DNA from: Escherichia coli
Lineage (GTDB): Bacteria; Pseudomonadota; Gammaproteobacteria; Enterobacterales; Enterobacteriaceae
Strand: one strand, 5' to 3'
Assembly: GCF_030384885.1 (NCBI RefSeq)
Contig: NZ_CP128613.1
DNA: 64,000 bases
Position numbers and translations under genes: made by a program
Shown: piece by piece, positions 36,929-45,181 of the stretch
How positions within the stretch are numbered: the first letter of the stretch is position 1
How the letters are laid out: each line of letters opens with the position of its first letter
Notes under the pieces: model-generated
What the model was told of the DNA's origin: nothing
Database searches by the model: none
What the model saw: only the letters and a program-made list of their open reading frames with translations

Positions 36929-38038
36929 ATGAACGAACAATCCCAGGCCAAATCACCAGAAGCCTTGCGCGCAATGGTCGCCGGGACACTGGCCAATTTT
37001 CAGCACCCAACCCTGAAGCATAACCTCACCACGCTGAAAGCGTTGCACCATGTCGCCTGGATGGACGACACGTTGCATGTGGAACTGGTTATGCCATTCG
37101 TCTGGCATAGCGCGTTCGAAGAGTTAAAAGAGCAATGTAGCGCTGAACTGCTGCGCATCACCGGGGCGAAAGCTATCGACTGGAAACTGTCGCACAATAT
37201 CGCCACCTTAAAACGCGTGAAGAATCAGCCGGGAATTAACGGCGTGAAGAACATCATTGCGGTCAGCTCCGGTAAAGGCGGCGTGGGTAAATCCTCCACG
37301 GCGGTAAATCTGGCGCTGGCACTGGCGGCGGAAGGGGCGAAAGTCGGCATTCTGGACGCCGATATCTACGGCCCATCAATACCCACCATGCTGGGCGCAG
37401 AAAATCAGCGTCCAACTTCGCCGGACGGTACCCATATGGCACCGATTATGTCTCATGGACTGGCAACCAATTCAATTGGTTATCTGGTCACTGACGACAA
37501 TGCGATGGTGTGGCGTGGTCCGATGGCGAGCAAGGCGTTAATGCAGATGTTGCAGGAAACCTTGTGGCCGGATCTCGACTATCTGGTGCTTGATATGCCG
37601 CCAGGCACCGGTGACATTCAATTGACACTGGCACAAAACATTCCAGTAACTGGCGCGGTAGTGGTCACCACCCCGCAGGACATTGCGTTGATCGATGCGA
37701 AAAAAGGCATTGTGATGTTCGAGAAAGTCGAGGTTCCGGTGCTCGGTATTGTCGAGAACATGAGTGTGCATATTTGCAGTAACTGTGGTCACCATGAACC
37801 GATTTTCGGTACCGGTGGTGCAGAGAAACTGGCCGAGAAATACCACACGCAGTTGCTGGGGCAGATGCCGTTACACATTTCCTTACGTGAAGATCTCGAT
37901 AAAGGCACGCCAACAGTTATCAGCCGTCCGGAGAGCGAATTTACCGCTATCTACCGCCAGCTGGCTGACCGCGTTGCAGCCCAGCTTTATTGGCAGGGAG
38001 AAGTCATTCCTGGCGAGATTTCCTTCCGCGCGGTCTGA
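36929..38038 (+). CDS. apbC: Fe-S cluster carrier ATPase ApbC (Mrp)
   Basis: 369 aa beginning MNEQSQAKSPEALRAMVAG; P-loop GKGGVGKSS; SD AAGGAG upstream. Confidence 0.95.
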   Translation: MNEQSQAKSPEALRAMVAGTLANFQHPTLKHNLTTLKALHHVAWMDDTLHVELVMPFVWHSAFEELKEQCSAELLRITGAKAIDWKLSHNIATLKRVKNQPGINGVKNIIAVSSGKGGVGKSSTAVNLALALAAEGAKVGILDADIYGPSIPTMLGAENQRPTSPDGTHMAPIMSHGLATNSIGYLVTDDNAMVWRGPMASKALMQMLQETLWPDLDYLVLDMPPGTGDIQLTLAQNIPVTGAVVVTTPQDIALIDAKKGIVMFEKVEVPVLGIVENMSVHICSNCGHHEPIFGTGGAEKLAEKYHTQLLGQMPLHISLREDLDKGTPTVISRPESEFTAIYRQLADRVAAQLYWQGEVIPGEISFRAV

Positions 38039-38300
38039 CGCGTATTAACCTTTTTGGTTGTTTTTCATACACCGCAGAGATGTTACATTGATGCGGTGTA
38101 TTTGCTTTTGCCGCATTAATGAACACTTATTTAATGCTGCGAATATTCTGCGGACCTTCGTCCGAAACTCTATAAAGTCGATTGATCGTACAGGCAATGC
38201 ATCATTATCATCCTTCGTGGCTGTGTAGTGGATGTACAGCTATAGTTTGTTATGCACTCATTCTATCCAGGCATAACCTTTACTACAGGGATAACGTTCA

Positions 38301-38582
38301 ATGAATAAGTACTGGCTATCAGGAATTATTTTTCTTGCCTATGGAATGGCTTCTCCCGCGTTCTCTTCACAGACTGCCACATTAACGATTAATGGCAGGA
38401 TCAGTCCCCCAACATGCAGTATGGCTATGGTTAATGGTCAACCTCAACAGCATTGTGGTCAGTTAACGTATGATGTTGATACCCGTCATCAGGTTTCTTC
38501 GCCAGTCAAAGGTGTGACGACAGAAGTGGTTGTTGCAGGTAGTGATAGCAAACGTCGAATCGTGTTAAATCGCTACGATTAA
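38301..38582 (+). CDS. yehE: Small secreted protein YehE
   Basis: 93 aa with signal peptide MNKYWLSGIIFLAYGMASPAFS. Confidence 0.8.
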   Translation: MNKYWLSGIIFLAYGMASPAFSSQTATLTINGRISPPTCSMAMVNGQPQQHCGQLTYDVDTRHQVSSPVKGVTTEVVVAGSDSKRRIVLNRYD

Positions 38583-38877
38583 TTTGCCACCCTGGTTTTT
38601 TAAGCGGATTTAGAAAGCTGAAATCATTCGCGTGAATGATTTCAGCTTTTTTATTGATATTAATAATACCATTTAAAAAAATCTGCATTAATTAATAGAT
38701 GTGATAAATATTTAATATGCTTAAGTATTTGTTGTATTTATATTGCAATAGTTAATTTGTTTTAAATCAATAAAACAATATGTTTACATTGCGGCAACTT
38801 TTTTGATGTGAGAAATTTGTTTCCAAGAGATACAGACTCTTAACAACCAAAAAATAAATTTTATTAAGGAACATATT

Positions 38878-39420
38878 ATGAAACGTTCAATTATTGCTGC
38901 CGCTGTCTTTTCTTCTTTTTTTATGAGCGCTGGGGTATTTGCCGCAGACGTTGATACCGGAACATTAACCATTAAAGGGAATATTGCAGAATCTCCGTGT
39001 AAATTCGAAGCAGGTGGCGATTCAGTAAGTATTAATATGCCAACTGTACCAACCACTGTCTTTGAAGGTAAAGCTAAATACTCGACCTATGATGATGCAG
39101 TCGGTGTAACCAGCAGCATGTTAAAAATTAGCTGTCCGAAAGAAGTTGCTGGTGTAAAACTCTCGTTGATTACCAACGATAAAATAACCGGAAACGATAA
39201 GGCGATAGCCAGTAGCAACGATACCGTGGGGTACTATCTCTATTTAGGTGATAACAGTGATGTCCTGGATGTTTCTGCACCTTTTAACATTGAGAGTTAT
39301 AAAACAGCGGAAGGTCAATATGCTATTCCGTTTAAAGCAAAATACCTGAAGCTGACAGATAATTCAGTGCAATCAGATGATGTGTTATCTTCTCTGGTTA
39401 TGCGTGTGGCGCAGGATTAA
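38878..39420 (+). CDS. yehD: Chaperone-usher fimbrial major subunit
   Basis: 180 aa, signal peptide, fimbrial subunit fold signature (C...C, C-terminal donor-strand region). Confidence 0.88.
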   Translation: MKRSIIAAAVFSSFFMSAGVFAADVDTGTLTIKGNIAESPCKFEAGGDSVSINMPTVPTTVFEGKAKYSTYDDAVGVTSSMLKISCPKEVAGVKLSLITNDKITGNDKAIASSNDTVGYYLYLGDNSDVLDVSAPFNIESYKTAEGQYAIPFKAKYLKLTDNSVQSDDVLSSLVMRVAQD

Positions 39421-39500
39421 TAAATAAAATTTCAAATTTCTCCAGGTAATAAACATGGCCGCTATCCCCATGGCGGCCTTTTAATTTAAGAGGCATTAAG

Positions 39501-40175
39501 ATGAAAGGATTATTAGCTTTACTCATTTCTTCTATGGTCCTTCCTGCGCATGCCGGAATTGTTATCTACGGGACGCGCATTATTTACCCGGCAGAAAATA
39601 AAGAAGTGATGGTGCAGTTGATGAACCAGGGAAACCGTTCTTCGCTGCTGCAGGCGTGGATTGATGATGGCGATACGTCGTTACCACCTGAAAAAATTCA
39701 GGTTCCTTTCATGTTAACGCCACCAGTGGCAAAAATAGGGGCAAATTCCGGGCAGCAAGTAAAAATCAAAATTATGTCGAATAAACTGCCCACTAATAAA
39801 GAGAGCATTTTTTATCTGAATGTTCTGGATATTCCACCAAATAGTCCAGAGCAAGAGGGCAAGAATGCACTGAAATTTGCAATGCAAAACAGAATCAAAT
39901 TGTTTTACCGGCCTGCGGGTATTGCACCGGTAAATAAAGCGACATTTAAAAAGTTACTGGTAAATCGCAGTGGCAATGGATTGGTGATAAAAAATGACTC
40001 AGCAAATTGGGTAACGATTTCGGATGTCAAAGCTAATAATGTCAAAGTCAATTATGAAACTATTATGATTGCCCCCTTGGAAAGTCAGAGTATTAATGTC
40101 AAAAGTAATAATGCGAATAACTGGTATCTGACCATTATCGATGACCATGGCAACTATATTAGTGACAAAATTTAA
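39501..40175 (+). CDS. yehC: Periplasmic fimbrial chaperone (PapD-like)
   Basis: 224 aa, signal peptide, GTRIIYP motif typical of pilus chaperones. Confidence 0.9.
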   Translation: MKGLLALLISSMVLPAHAGIVIYGTRIIYPAENKEVMVQLMNQGNRSSLLQAWIDDGDTSLPPEKIQVPFMLTPPVAKIGANSGQQVKIKIMSNKLPTNKESIFYLNVLDIPPNSPEQEGKNALKFAMQNRIKLFYRPAGIAPVNKATFKKLLVNRSGNGLVIKNDSANWVTISDVKANNVKVNYETIMIAPLESQSINVKSNNANNWYLTIIDDHGNYISDKI

Positions 40176-40190
40176 TTGCAGGAGCTGCCT

Positions 40191-42671
40191 ATGTTGAGAA
40201 TGACCCCACTTGCATCAGCAATCGTAGCGTTATTGCTCGGCATTGAAGCTTATGCAGCTGAAGAAACCTTTGATACCCATTTTATGATAGGTGGAATGAA
40301 AGACCAGCAGGTTGCAAATATTCGTCTTGATGATAATCAACCCTTGCCGGGGCAGTATGACATCGATATTTATGTCAATAAGCAATGGCGCGGGAAATAT
40401 GAGATTATTGTTAAAGACAACCCGCAAGAAACATGTTTATCCAGGGAAATTATCAAGCGGTTAGGCATTAATACCGATAACTTTGCCAGCGGTAAGCAAT
40501 GTTTAACATTTGAGCAACTTGTTCACGGTGGGAGCTATACCTGGGATATCGGAGTTTTTCGTCTCGATTTCAGTGTACCGCAGGCGTGGGTGGAAGAACT
40601 GGAAAGTGGCTATGTTCCACCGGAAAACTGGGAGCGGGGTATTAATGCGTTTTATACCTCTTATTATGTGAGTCAGTATTACAGCGACTATAAAGCGTCG
40701 GGTAATAGCAAGAGTACATATGTACGTTTTAACAGCGGGTTAAATTTACTGGGGTGGCAACTGCATTCTGATGCCAGTTTCAGTAAAACAAATAGCAATC
40801 CAGGGGTGTGGAAAAGCAATACCCTGTATCTGGAACGTGGATTTGCCCAACTTCTCGGCACGCTTCGCGTGGGTGATATGTACACATCAAGCGATATTTT
40901 TGATTCTGTTCGCTTCAGCGGTGTGCGGTTGTTTCGTGATATGCAGATGTTGCCTAACTCGAAACAAAATTTTACTCCACGGGTGCAGGGGATTGCTCAG
41001 AGTAACGCGCTGGTAACTATTGAACAGAACGGTTTTGTGGTTTATCAGAAAGAGGTTCCTCCTGGCCCGTTTGCGATTACAGATTTGCAGTTGGCCGGTG
41101 GTGGAGCAGATCTTGATGTCAGCGTGAAAGAGGCGGACGGTTCGGTAACCACCTATCTGGTGCCTTATGCAGCAGTGCCGAATATGCTGCAACCCGGCGT
41201 GTCGAAATATGATTTTGCGGCAGGTCGTAGCCATATTGAAGGGGCGAGCAAACAAAGTGATTTTGTTCAGGCGGGTTATCAGTATGGTTTTAATAACTTA
41301 TTGACGCTGTATGGCGGATCGATGGTCGCGAATAATTATTACGCGTTCACTTTGGGGACTGGCTGGAATACACGCATTGGTGCCATTTCCGTCGATGCCA
41401 CGAAGTCGCATAGTAAACAAGACAACGGCGATGTGTTTGACGGGCAAAGTTATCAAATTGCCTACAACAAATTTGTGAGCCAAACGTCGACGCGTTTTGG
41501 TCTGGCGGCCTGGCGTTATTCGTCGCGTGATTACCGGACATTTAACGATCACGTTTGGGCAAACAATAAAGATAATTATCGCCGTGATGAAAACGATATC
41601 TATGACATTGCCGATTATTACCAGAACGATTTTGGCCGTAAAAATAGCTTTTCTGCCAATATGAGCCAGTCATTGCCAGAAGGCTGGGGTTCTGTGTCCT
41701 TAAGTACGTTATGGCGAGATTACTGGGGGCGTAGCGGCAGCAGTAAGGATTATCAGTTGAGTTATTCCAACAACCTGCGACGGATAAGCTATACCCTCGC
41801 AGCAAGCCAGGCTTATGACGAGAATCATCATGAAGAGAAACGTTTTAATATTTTTATATCGATTCCCTTTGATTGGGGTGATGACGTTACGACGCCTCGT
41901 CGGCAAATATATATGTCTAACTCAACGACATTTGATGATCAGGGTTTTGCCTCAAATAATACGGGATTATCGGGAACCGTTGGAAGCCGGGATCAATTTA
42001 ACTATGGGGTCAACCTGAGTCATCAGCATCAGGGAAATGAAACGACAGCTGGAGCGAATTTAACCTGGAACGCGCCGGTGGCAACGGTGAATGGCAGTTA
42101 TAGTCAGTCGAGTACTTATCGACAGGCTGGAGCCAGTCTTTCAGGGGGCATTGTCGCCTGGTCGGGTGGCGTTAATCTGGCGAACCGTCTTTCCGAAACG
42201 TTTGCTGTGATGAATGCGCCAGGAATTAAAGATGCTTATGTCAATGGGCAAAAATATCGCACAACAAACCGTAATGGAGTGGTGGTATACGACGGAATGA
42301 CACCTTATCGGGAAAATCACCTGATGCTGGATGTGTCGCAAAGCGATAGCGAAGCAGAATTACGTGGCAACCGGAACATTGCCGCCCCTTTTCGCGGCGC
42401 GGTTGTACTGGTTAATTTTGATACCGATCAGCGCAAGCCCTGGTTTATAAAAGCGTTAAGAGCGGATGGGCAACCATTAACGTTTGGTTATGAAGTCAAT
42501 GATATCCACGGTCACAATATTGGTGTTGTCGGTCAGGGAAGCCAGTTATTTATTCGCACTAATGATGTACCGCCATCGGTTAATGTGGCAATTGATAAAC
42601 AACAAGGGCTCTCATGCACAATCACCTTCGGTAAAGAGATTGATGAAAATAGGAACTATATTTGCCAGTAA
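40191..42671 (+). CDS. yehB: Fimbrial outer membrane usher
   Basis: ORF track starts at a TTG (40176); ATG at 40191 with an upstream AGGAG gives 826 aa beginning MLRMTPLASAIVALLLG. Confidence 0.9.
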   Translation: MLRMTPLASAIVALLLGIEAYAAEETFDTHFMIGGMKDQQVANIRLDDNQPLPGQYDIDIYVNKQWRGKYEIIVKDNPQETCLSREIIKRLGINTDNFASGKQCLTFEQLVHGGSYTWDIGVFRLDFSVPQAWVEELESGYVPPENWERGINAFYTSYYVSQYYSDYKASGNSKSTYVRFNSGLNLLGWQLHSDASFSKTNSNPGVWKSNTLYLERGFAQLLGTLRVGDMYTSSDIFDSVRFSGVRLFRDMQMLPNSKQNFTPRVQGIAQSNALVTIEQNGFVVYQKEVPPGPFAITDLQLAGGGADLDVSVKEADGSVTTYLVPYAAVPNMLQPGVSKYDFAAGRSHIEGASKQSDFVQAGYQYGFNNLLTLYGGSMVANNYYAFTLGTGWNTRIGAISVDATKSHSKQDNGDVFDGQSYQIAYNKFVSQTSTRFGLAAWRYSSRDYRTFNDHVWANNKDNYRRDENDIYDIADYYQNDFGRKNSFSANMSQSLPEGWGSVSLSTLWRDYWGRSGSSKDYQLSYSNNLRRISYTLAASQAYDENHHEEKRFNIFISIPFDWGDDVTTPRRQIYMSNSTTFDDQGFASNNTGLSGTVGSRDQFNYGVNLSHQHQGNETTAGANLTWNAPVATVNGSYSQSSTYRQAGASLSGGIVAWSGGVNLANRLSETFAVMNAPGIKDAYVNGQKYRTTNRNGVVVYDGMTPYRENHLMLDVSQSDSEAELRGNRNIAAPFRGAVVLVNFDTDQRKPWFIKALRADGQPLTFGYEVNDIHGHNIGVVGQGSQLFIRTNDVPPSVNVAIDKQQGLSCTITFGKEIDENRNYICQ

Positions 42672-42686
42672 TAATCGGGTGGCTCT

Positions 42687-43721
42687 ATGAAAATTCGCAT
42701 AATGTTATTTATATTAATTATGATGGTAATGCCTGTGAGTTATGCAGCATGTTATGGAGAGTTATCTGCCCAGCATAATTTTGCTGTTCAGGGGGATTTT
42801 GCACTGACTCAAACACAAACGGCAACATATGAGCATAATTTTAATGATTCGTCATGCGTGAGTACAAATACTATCACCCCTATGAGCCCGTCGGATATTA
42901 TTGTTGGACTTTATAACGATACCATTAAATTAAATTTACATTTTGAATGGACCAATAAAAACAACATCACGTTGTCAAATAATCAGACCAGTTTCACCAA
43001 TGGTTATTCGGTAACGGTGACACCTGCGGCCAGTAATGCAAAAGTGAATGTTTCTGCGGGGGGCGGCGGTTCAGTGATGATTAATGGTGTTGCGACATTA
43101 TCCAGTGCTTCATCATCGACACGCGGGAGTGCTGCAGTACAATTTTTACTGTGTTTATTCGGTGGCAAGTCATGGGATGCATGTGTAAATAGCTACAGAA
43201 ATGCATTGGCACAAAATGCAGGTGTCTATTCCTTTAATCTGACATTGTCATACAACCCGATAACCACAACCTGCAAACCGGACGATTTATTAATTACTTT
43301 AGAGAGTATTCCCGTTTCACAATTACCAGCTACAGGTAACAAAGCAACAATAAATAGTAACAAAGGGGATATTGTTCTGCGTTGTAAAAACTTATTAGGT
43401 CAACAAAATCAAACATCACGGAAAATGCAGGTGTATTTATCAAGTTCTGACTTGTTAACCAACAGCAACACAATACTGAAAGGTGCGGAAGATAATGGCG
43501 TAGGATTTATTCTTGAAAGTAATGGTTCTCCAGTCACACTTTTAAATATCACTAACAGCAGTAAAGAATACACAAATTTAAAAGAAATTGCGGCAAAGTC
43601 AAAACTTACAGATACAACGGTTTCAATTCCGATAACTGCCAGTTACTACGTCTACGATACAAATAAAATTAAATCTGGCGCACTGGAGGCAACCGCATTA
43701 ATCAACGTGAAATACGACTAA
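42687..43721 (+). CDS. yehA: Fimbrial adhesin-like protein
   Basis: 344 aa with signal peptide; last gene of the yehDCBA operon. Confidence 0.85.
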   Translation: MKIRIMLFILIMMVMPVSYAACYGELSAQHNFAVQGDFALTQTQTATYEHNFNDSSCVSTNTITPMSPSDIIVGLYNDTIKLNLHFEWTNKNNITLSNNQTSFTNGYSVTVTPAASNAKVNVSAGGGGSVMINGVATLSSASSSTRGSAAVQFLLCLFGGKSWDACVNSYRNALAQNAGVYSFNLTLSYNPITTTCKPDDLLITLESIPVSQLPATGNKATINSNKGDIVLRCKNLLGQQNQTSRKMQVYLSSSDLLTNSNTILKGAEDNGVGFILESNGSPVTLLNITNSSKEYTNLKEIAAKSKLTDTTVSIPITASYYVYDTNKIKSGALEATALINVKYD

Positions 43722-43802
43722 TAACAAGCAAGACGAGCAAGTGGCTAATAATAAAAAATAACAAGGTGTCTGCATTTCCACCTCATGATGAGGGGGCTTT
43801 TT

Positions 43803-44141
43803 TTAGCGATGATAAAAAATCTCACCATCGTAGGCTTTAATGATTTTACCGTCGGTGTCGCTGATCAACACGTACGCGCCACCCATATAGGTCCAGTGCG
43901 TCCCGGCATCAGGCGCGGGCAGGTTACGTAACTGCCACTGCTTAATGTTGTACTCATCGGTGCGGTACATCTCTGGGACGGTATCGCCTGGTTTGAAATG
44001 CTTAAAGTCAGCAATGAAACTGCTTAACTCATACTTAGAAATTCCCGAGGTATTGGTCGAACCCGCGGTGGCTGGTGCGGCCCAGGCGGCACTGGTAACC
44101 AGCAAAAGCACACCCAGCAACATCTTATTTTTAATGGTCAT
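43803..44141 (-). CDS. rcnB: Periplasmic nickel/cobalt homeostasis protein RcnB (YohN)
   Basis: ORF 43803-44321(-); start at 44141 gives 112 aa beginning MTIKNKMLLGVLLLVTSAAWA. Confidence 0.88.
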   Translation of the reverse strand: MTIKNKMLLGVLLLVTSAAWAAPATAGSTNTSGISKYELSSFIADFKHFKPGDTVPEMYRTDEYNIKQWQLRNLPAPDAGTHWTYMGGAYVLISDTDGKIIKAYDGEIFYHR

Positions 44142-44359
44142 AAACTCTCCACTTTGGGGATCTGTAATATCAGTCGCATATCTTTCCTGCCATACAATAT
44201 AACTGACAAGCGATATTTTGTTAGTGATCCCATGATTTCGTAAAAAGTGTAAATGAAAGGATGCCCTAAAAGCATCCTTAGCGAGCAGAGAGCCAGCGGA
44301 AATAGCTGATTTAAGAATCATCCTGGGCTGAAGATAACATGCAAGCCTAAAGGATTGAG

Positions 44360-45181
44360 TTATCGTATTATGCCCATAAAGCCATGTACGCCCATATACA
44401 CACCAACTAAGCCAATCAACAGACTGGAAAAATAGGGGGCGCGTTTAGCGAGAGTGTTAAATCCGCTCCAGCGTTTTGCGACCTGCTGAACGCTGATTGC
44501 TGCGCCAATGCCTACGGTGACCAGCGTTAACGCAAGGCCAATGCTGAAACTGACGACCAGTGTTGCGCCCAGTGTCAGGGCTTTCAACTGAATGCAAATC
44601 AACAGCACGGTAATTGCTGCCGGGCAGGGGATAAGGCCACCGGTTAAGCCAAATAACAAAATTTGCCAGTTGGTGACCTCTCTACCATCGAAGCGTCGTT
44701 TAATGTCATTGGCATGGGCTCGTGCATGAGCATCCTGATACTCCCCATGTTCGTGATGGTGATGATGTCCATGGTCGTGGTGATCTTCGTGATCGTGATG
44801 ATACTCATGATCATGCCCGTGCATATTCTCCAGCCAGTTGCGTTCGCCGCGCCAGGTACGCCAGAACATCCAGAACGCGGTGCCAATAATGATCACCGCG
44901 GAAATCAACTGGAGCCACGGTTCTGCAGATTGAGCAGTAAAACGTTTGCTGATCACCATCCCGCCAAAGGCAATCAACCAGACCACCGCGGTATGCGAAA
45001 TGGTTGCTGCCAGTCCGAGCATCACCGCCTGTTTAATGGTGCCTTTGATGGCGATGATAAACGCCGCCATCATCGTTTTTGAGTGCCCTGGTTCCAGGCC
45101 ATGAAGCGCACCAAGTAAGATGGCGCTGGGGATGAAGAACCAGGCATTTCCTTGCTGAAGAAGAGTGGTAAATTCGGTCAT
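44360..45181 (-). CDS. rcnA: Nickel/cobalt efflux protein RcnA
   Basis: 273 aa membrane protein with His-rich loop HGHDHEYHHDHEDHHDHGHHHHHEHGEY. Confidence 0.93.
   Translation of the reverse strand: MTEFTTLLQQGNAWFFIPSAILLGALHGLEPGHSKTMMAAFIIAIKGTIKQAVMLGLAATISHTAVVWLIAFGGMVISKRFTAQSAEPWLQLISAVIIIGTAFWMFWRTWRGERNWLENMHGHDHEYHHDHEDHHDHGHHHHHEHGEYQDAHARAHANDIKRRFDGREVTNWQILLFGLTGGLIPCPAAITVLLICIQLKALTLGATLVVSFSIGLALTLVTVGIGAAISVQQVAKRWSGFNTLAKRAPYFSSLLIGLVGVYMGVHGFMGIIR

Follow-up and report, generated by a model that had tools for sequence, protein, structure and literature searches.

The yeh fimbrial locus of Escherichia coli is core-associated, corresponds to Stc of Salmonella and lies at the same site in Citrobacter (PMC3559732). 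It has been assigned to the gamma-4 class, and thin, flexible fibres were obtained when the genes ECs2914-2918, yehE included, were driven from Ptet (PMC7098969). According to Korea et al. (2010), as cited in PMC5797941, the fimbriae are functional under forced expression and are repressed by H-NS; yehDCBA has been described as a cryptic operon of the H-NS regulon, with a 3.6-fold rise on SlyA overexpression (PMC5797941). Here we analyzed the yeh locus at positions 38039-43721 of a 64,000-nucleotide stretch of E. coli DNA (hereafter the window; assembly GCF_030384885.1, contig NZ_CP128613.1). A preliminary description, made from the letters alone, had called this locus a cryptic, H-NS-silenced and horizontally acquired chaperone-usher operon with long AT-rich leaders that probably hold several regulator binding sites. 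The cluster is very probably the known core Yeh operon, made up of two transcription units (yehE and yehDCBA), silenced by H-NS and controlled by ArcA, FNR and CsrA. Its identity, H-NS binding, cryptic status and several of its regulators are already known from published work, and the re-identification of a known core fimbrial cluster matters little. The modest added value lies in the finding that, in a spacer that otherwise evolves fast, the published ArcA/FNR site is the single part under strong constraint.

Identity and distribution of the locus

All five reading frames are intact in the window, downstream of apbC, which ends at 38038:

38301-38582, plus strand: yehE, secreted protein of 93 amino acids (Pfam PF10836, DUF2574, E 1.4e-51)
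38878-39420, plus strand: yehD, major fimbrial subunit (Pfam Fimbrial and RefSeq annotation)
39501-40175, plus strand: yehC, periplasmic chaperone (PapD_N, PapD_C)
40191-42671, plus strand: yehB, outer-membrane usher (Usher, PapC_N, PapC_C)
42687-43721, plus strand: yehA, putative two-domain tip adhesin with a C-terminal pilin domain (Pfam Fimbrial, NCBIfam NF011788)

Annotation, domains and coordinates agree with the gene names and limits given in the preliminary description, and the PapD, PapC and Fimbrial domains, together with the published cryptic status, bear out its wording "cryptic chaperone-usher fimbrial operon". YehC carries both PapD-like domains (PapD_N, E 1.4e-41; PapD_C, E 2.8e-8), and YehB is PapC-like with all three domains (Usher, E 1.6e-195; PapC_N, E 4e-34; PapC_C, E 9.9e-9), scoring 1751.6 bits against NCBIfam NF011763 (cut-off 933). 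The assignment of YehD is closer to the thresholds: 27.0 bits against Pfam Fimbrial is barely over the cut-off of 25.6, and 108.8 bits against the NCBIfam YehD model is under the cut-off of 136. Residues 184-344 of YehA matched Pfam Fimbrial (E 2e-22), and the protein reached 672 bits with NF011788; its N-terminal 183 residues matched no family.

The K-12 counterpart is b2108-b2112 for the cluster and b2108-b2113 for the wider locus, with a cluster identity of ~96% and shared apbC and rcnB flanks, and the counterpart in enterohaemorrhagic E. coli (EHEC) O157:H7 is ECs2914-2918. A megablast search with 37900-44000 of the window located apbC-yehE-yehDCBA-rcnB in 5423 of 5426 complete E. coli genomes. 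The allele in the window is rare: identity over the locus was at least 99% in 3 of the 5426 and 95-99% in most, and yehE-yehD is only ~94.6% identical to laboratory strains of the K-12 type, so that the window is probably not K-12 DNA. When one genome per species was scanned with YehC, 80 loci were retrieved. Several Escherichia species share the order apbC-yehE-yehD-yehC-yehB-adhesin-rcnB with Salmonella arizonae and diarizonae and with many Citrobacter.

Base composition and H-NS silencing

The window as a whole has a guanine-cytosine (GC) content of 50.0%, whereas the operon has 42.5%, against 49.5-52% in its flanks. The 295-bp yehE-yehD spacer (38583-38877) is 24.7% GC, a value as low as which occurs in only 0.09% of equal-size windows, and the GC minimum of the 64 kb falls within it; from 38656 to 38877 the content is 21%. 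This spacer holds eight A/T tracts of at least four bases (2.7 per 100 bases vs ~1.1 in the flanks), its TpA frequency is 0.109 vs 0.048 in the window, and it is 24-32% GC in every cross-genus locus compared. The apbC-yehE spacer (38039-38300) is 40.5% GC (7.8th percentile), about the same as the yehD coding sequence (40.7%), with three A/T tracts. The statements that both spacers are unusually AT-rich and have many poly-A/T tracts thus hold for the former but not for the latter, and the label "leader" is imprecise, as each spacer includes the terminator of the gene before it and the putative promoter of the gene after it.

In K-12, the yehD/yehE spacer figures among the 78 listed "promoter islands" and is transcriptionally quiet (Panyukov and Ozoline 2013; PMC3661553 Table 1). 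It is entered in the same table as H-NS-bound in the chromatin immunoprecipitation (ChIP) data of Kahramanoglou and of Oshima, and entries in that paper have it flagged as island DNA by IslandViewer and GIST and predicted foreign by Nakamura and by Lawrence-Ochman (PMC3661553). The yehEDCBA genes have also been placed inside a static, extended, silenced protein-occupancy domain, where loss of occupancy alone was insufficient for expression; since this loss fails to switch the operon on, H-NS silencing is not the whole story. In addition, BolA is reported to induce yehD and yehC.

We considered whether the AT-richness is the plain composition of intergenic DNA, terminator plus promoter, with no role in silencing. 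This would suit the apbC-yehE spacer, given its GC content, its ordinary terminator and its normal-looking promoter. As an account of the locus it is unlikely, because the yehE-yehD spacer is the AT-richest spot in the 64 kb, it is a listed H-NS-bound promoter island in a silenced occupancy domain, and for K-12 there are already reports both of H-NS occupancy by ChIP and of derepression when hns is mutated. The term "H-NS-silenced" is upheld by the K-12 ChIP data, the promoter island and the occupancy domain, and the checks that the preliminary description had named, H-NS ChIP and promoter fusions under different growth conditions, have been answered in its favour by published work. Within the spacer, the main platform for H-NS nucleation and spreading is likely to be the segment 38656-38729.

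A conserved control block upstream of yehD

From yehE to yehD, the spacer runs through the yehE terminator, a hypervariable stretch of ~21% GC, a conserved block of 120 nt and the ribosome-binding site. Its elements are as follows:

38656-38729, unstranded: hypervariable AT-rich stretch (51% identity between two E. coli haplotypes, with insertions and deletions)
38730-38849, plus strand: conserved control block upstream of yehD (95% identity between E. coli haplotypes)
38757-38770, unstranded: FNR-type box TTGTT-TTAA-ATCAA (9/10 matches to TTGAT-N4-ATCAA)
38758-38800, minus strand: binding region of phosphorylated ArcA (ArcA-P), four direct repeats at 11-bp spacing (42 of 43 bases of its reverse complement agree with the K-12 site AAGTTGCCGCAATGTAAACACATTGTTTTATTGATTTAAAACA of PMC3798270)
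38789-38817, plus strand: putative yehD promoter, from conservation, with -35 TTGCGG (38789-38794), extended -10 TG (38809-38810) and -10 GAAATT (38812-38817)
38866-38871, plus strand: yehD Shine-Dalgarno sequence AAGGAA with the CsrA-bound GGA (GGA invariant across genera)

The haplotype identities come from comparing the window with K-12 and O157:H7; between the same haplotypes, the genes adjoining the 120-nt block are 75-79% identical. A cross-genus alignment of 24-26 upstream regions, of which 24 sequences from at least six genera were used for the core figures, gave a mean pairwise identity of 81% and 14 of 42 invariant columns in the core (38757-38798), vs 48% and 3 of 74 in the distal spacer (38656-38729). 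YehD itself is merely 30-35% identical in these comparisons. Searches by blastn gave matches to the control block in Salmonella, Citrobacter, Superficieibacter and paralogous operons. E. coli chromosomes have one copy of the core, which likewise stands in front of paralogous yeh-like operons without yehE and of a plasmid copy between the insertion sequences IS1 and IS3.

The constrained bases coincide with sites of published regulators. An ArcA ChIP-seq peak lies upstream of yehD in K-12, where the four direct repeats were mapped in AAGTTGCCGCAATGTAAACACATTGTTTTATTGATTTAAAACA, and yehDCBA is derepressed 5.4-fold in an arcA mutant (PMC3798270 supplements). In K-12, the yehD region is bound in vivo by FNR (PMC2690998), and we infer that this binding belongs to the 38757-38770 box, at which the invariant columns of the core are exactly TTG and TCA(A). 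In EHEC, a CsrA gel shift on the 5' untranslated region (5'UTR) of yeh depends on GG, and CsrA acts positively; yeh there is a single transcript from its native promoter, and ethanolamine with B12 raises YehD (PMC11287998). These published ArcA-P, FNR and CsrA interactions support the surmise of several regulator binding sites for the yehE-yehD spacer.

In the 24-26 aligned sequences, the TTG of the putative -35 element is invariant, and the TG, the A at -11 and the T at -7 are near-invariant. These positions would fit a weak sigma-70 promoter with a predicted start near A38825. Counted from such a start, the FNR-type box would fall at about -61.5, and the ArcA repeats would cover the -35 region. 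No convincing sigma-54, sigma-E or sigma-28 consensus was seen by eye in the conserved block. The promoter scan returned one match in the yehE-yehD spacer, at 38654-38682; it lies in the non-conserved part and was not adopted.

The conservation of the block could also be that of an RNA, such as a structured 5' leader, a riboswitch-like element or a small RNA, rather than of protein-binding DNA. CsrA does act on the 5'UTR, the core includes a perfect palindrome, TTGTTTTA-N6-TAAAACAA (38757-38778), and in a possible stem, AAGAG/CTCTT (38825-38841), both arms have some changes (7 cells, 4 pairs), which is weak support. However, RNAalifold returned no consensus structure, every departure from the palindrome breaks a pair without compensatory change, and an Rfam search of 37900-44400 with E up to 1 gave two chance microRNA matches, only on a terminator hairpin. 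The same bases are, moreover, the published ArcA-P site on DNA. Since a consensus structure, compensatory change and an Rfam match are all lacking, we regard the block as constrained as DNA, and an RNA role as very unlikely.

Many fimbrial operons are phase-variable, and the spacer might accordingly hold a switch, either invertible like that of fim or of the Dam/Lrp type found in pap. An inverted pair of 15 nt with 87% complementarity (38649-38663 and 38761-38775) does surround 97 bases here, but the DNA there is AT-rich and of low complexity, and the left arm of the pair is not conserved. There is no GATC site in 38583-38877, and neither the locus nor its immediate neighbourhood has a gene for a recombinase or a PapB/PapI-type regulator. 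On these grounds, namely the missing recombinase and PapB/PapI genes, the missing GATC sites and the want of convincing inverted repeats, we rejected a switch like that of fim or pap and regard it as the least credible of the explanations considered.

Three side observations concern the spacer and its core. A nine-codon frame, ATG TTT ACA TTG CGG CAA CTT TTT TGA, lies at 38780-38806 inside the conserved block, with a GTG start in K-12; as it lacks a ribosome-binding site, it probably arises by chance from the conserved DNA motif. The O157:H7 spacer (L003 6354-6400, aligned at ~38672) contains a tandem repeat of ATTTACGGTA in ~2.5 copies, absent from the window and K-12, which exemplifies turnover by insertion and deletion in the hypervariable part. 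The E. coli plasmid NZ_JBWDPM010000001.1 (116 kb) carries, between IS1 and IS3, a four-gene yeh-like operon (L086 1886-9289; see also L026 and L028), which has genes for a subunit of the yehD type, chaperone, usher and adhesin but lacks yehE, and which keeps the upstream core TTGAT-TTAA-ATCAC ... GTTTACATTGCG. In both E. whittamii and Escherichia sp. E1V33, an operon of this type forms a second, chromosomal locus.

Transcription units and terminators

Several elements delimit the transcription units:

38067-38101, plus strand: apbC intrinsic terminator, hairpin with T-rich tail (inverted repeat; RNA fold -18.3 kcal/mol, z -4.9)
38182-38211, plus strand: putative sigma-70 yehE promoter, -35 TTGATC (38182-38187), 18-nt spacer, -10 TATCAT (38206-38211), 9/12 consensus matches
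38612-38657, plus strand: intrinsic terminator of yehE, with a T run after an 18-bp stem and 4-nt loop (stem-loop 38612-38651; fold -24 kcal/mol, z -5.7)
39457-39482, plus strand: GC-rich hairpin with TTTT after yehD (hairpin scan)
43781-43803, plus strand: terminator-like hairpin with T run after yehA, in the convergent yehA/rcnB gap (hairpin scan)

The apbC terminator hairpin is conserved across Escherichia, Salmonella and Citrobacter. Downstream of it, the promoter-like site is kept as TTGATC-18-TACAAT in Citrobacter and Salmonella, and the persistence of this TTGATC-18-TA..AT arrangement suggests that yehE has its own promoter. The stem of the yehE terminator shows a compensatory change, T-A to C-G, relative to K-12. 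With so strong a terminator between them, yehE and yehDCBA look like separate units, connected at most by read-through. A hairpin occurs at the equal position after yehD, with other sequence, in O157, Salmonella and Citrobacter. By analogy with other fimbrial operons, the yehD hairpin is a probable partial terminator or mRNA stabiliser that would set the ratio of subunit to machinery.

A model of regulation and the evidence against it

We propose that H-NS polymerises over both the 42%-GC operon and its AT-rich spacer and keeps the locus silent, as the published ChIP and occupancy data show for K-12. ArcA-P on the direct repeats (38758-38800), over the -35 region, would add anaerobic repression, as seen in K-12, and FNR may act via the FNR-type box, ~61.5 bases upstream of the predicted start; box, promoter and geometry are all predictions here. 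Expression would be raised by SlyA, BolA and ethanolamine, which have each been observed to do so, and by CsrA, whose binding to the GGA of the ribosome-binding site has a positive effect in EHEC. Finally, the hairpin after yehD would favour a high ratio of subunit to assembly machinery.

Several points weigh against this account. The regulator data come from K-12 or EHEC, and the window strain is ~4% divergent from K-12 over the locus and ~10% in the yehE-yehD spacer. The designation "cryptic" depends on strain and condition, since the EHEC operon is expressed from its native promoter. The high-affinity H-NS motif TCGATAAATT, with two mismatches or fewer, gave 84 matches vs 68.6 expected, none of them in the core; the motif is not enriched, and the scan is uninformative. 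Taken by itself, the FNR pattern does not exceed chance (6 matches vs 2.9 expected in the window), and a perfect FNR consensus, TTGATGATAATCAA, lies inside yehB, 136 bases in (40327-40340; same in K-12, one change in O157:H7). This intragenic box could explain the FNR ChIP signal or add to it, so that the assignment of the signal to the upstream box is unproven. No start site for yehD is given in the PMC3798270 supplements, which leaves the promoter and the -61.5 geometry as predictions; a class II arrangement, with the FNR-type box at -41.5, is possible.

The small protein YehE

YehE is intact in 26 of 26 orthologues, with the conserved motifs ATLTINGR..PTC and RQIVLNRYD. In Superficieibacter, yehE stands directly upstream of yehD though apbC is not a neighbour, and the gene is linked to the yeh-type operon rather than to apbC (L016 3850-4131, L018 3846-4127). 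The first 44 residues of YehD also match the DUF2574 family (E 8e-4), and the YehE profile weakly matches a FimG precursor (E 0.16), so the YehE N-terminus resembles those of pilins. A signal peptide, a pilin-like N-terminal segment and two conserved cysteines 13 residues apart were observed, and the C-terminus, RQIVLNRYD, has a penultimate tyrosine. Such a tyrosine is typical of pilin C-termini. With ~70 mature residues, YehE falls short of a complete pilin. It may instead be a mini-subunit derived from a pilin, one that caps the fibre or tunes its assembly, or else an assembly modulator.

Structure prediction added little to this. The AlphaFold model of YehE had a mean predicted local distance difference test score (pLDDT) of 65 and a predicted template modelling score (pTM) of 0.32, with the fold not resolved, and a Foldseek search of the model against the PDB gave nothing at E <=0.001. 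A YehC-linker-YehE fusion, folded with donor-strand complementation in mind, was uninformative because its mean pLDDT was 54.

Acquisition and probable cassette replacement

Two deeply divergent yeh cassettes exist in E. coli, with sharp breakpoints shortly after the terminator of apbC and at the stop codon of yehA (38100-43721 of the window). The O157:H7 cassette (L003) is 75-87% identical to that of the window and 98.5-99.6% identical to that of Escherichia sp. E1V33 (L009), in which the flanking apbC and rcnB are only 91-92% identical. Judged by these identities, it looks like a whole-cassette replacement by recombination between species. The divergent class is present in ~407 of 5446 records. 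In YehA, the C-terminal pilin domain is 43% identical between the haplotypes, and no similarity between them was detectable in the N-terminal ~147 residues (42687-43235), the presumed receptor-binding domain; for the adhesin gene of the Salmonella and most Citrobacter loci, tblastn gave no match. Since the YehA N-terminus is unrelated between haplotypes and the adhesin is unmatched across genera, the tip adhesin has been swapped while chaperone and usher were kept.

A recently acquired genomic island in the window strain would accord with the GC content, 8 points under the flanks, the flagging of the spacer by IslandViewer and GIST, the replacement of the whole cassette in the O157:H7 lineage and the occurrence of yeh-like operons on plasmids between insertion sequences. 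Against this, the locus stands at one and the same site in 5423 of 5426 E. coli genomes, and Escherichia species, Salmonella and Citrobacter share the order apbC-yehE-yehDCB-adhesin-rcnB; a patchy distribution, as would point to recent acquisition, is not seen. No integrase, tRNA or flanking repeats were found at the locus, and published work concludes likewise (PMC3559732). A recent island is thus highly improbable. The earlier wording "horizontally acquired" is apt for old, compositionally foreign DNA; it fails in the sense of a recent arrival, because the locus is core to E. coli and has the same neighbours across three genera.

Comparison with known systems

The ArcA/FNR block (42-60 nt) was found in Escherichia, Salmonella, Citrobacter, Superficieibacter, a Klebsiella paralogue and IS-flanked plasmid copies. 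We tentatively suggest, as a possibility that we rate somewhat below even, that it is an ancestral redox switch which travels as a fixed part of every Yeh/Stc-type operon. If this is true, the supposedly "cryptic" family of adhesins would act across the Enterobacteriaceae as a colonisation factor gated by oxygen. The cross-genus footprint provides a precise target for learning when Yeh/Stc fimbriae are made.

Among described systems, the Yeh loci of K-12 and EHEC O157:H7 have the same genes, order, flanks and control block as the window, although that of O157:H7 is a separate haplotype with 75-87% identity, whose adhesin has an N-terminal domain unrelated to that of the window. The K-12 promoter island is the counterpart of 38583-38877, the same object in another strain, with no difference. 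The Stc operon of Salmonella enterica (stcABCD) is orthologous by position and usher similarity, with the same flanks and an upstream yehE; in S. arizonae, YehB is 81% and YehC 71% identical to the proteins of the window, and the ArcA/FNR core of Stc is 90% identical. Stc differs in its major subunit (~33% identical) and in its adhesin gene, which is not detectably similar.

The fim and pap operons share with Yeh the chaperone-usher architecture, repression by H-NS and a hairpin after the major-subunit gene, whereas Yeh is without a fimS-type switch, FimB/FimE, PapB/PapI and a Dam GATC pair. In regulation, a further likeness seems to be offered by the hlyE (clyA) promoter of E. coli K-12, where H-NS silencing is antagonised by SlyA and an FNR/CRP site lies at -61.5. 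The yehD promoter is likewise AT-rich, H-NS-bound and induced by SlyA, with an FNR-type box at a predicted -61.5. Unlike at hlyE, this geometry is inferred at yehD, where repression by ArcA and binding of CsrA come in addition.

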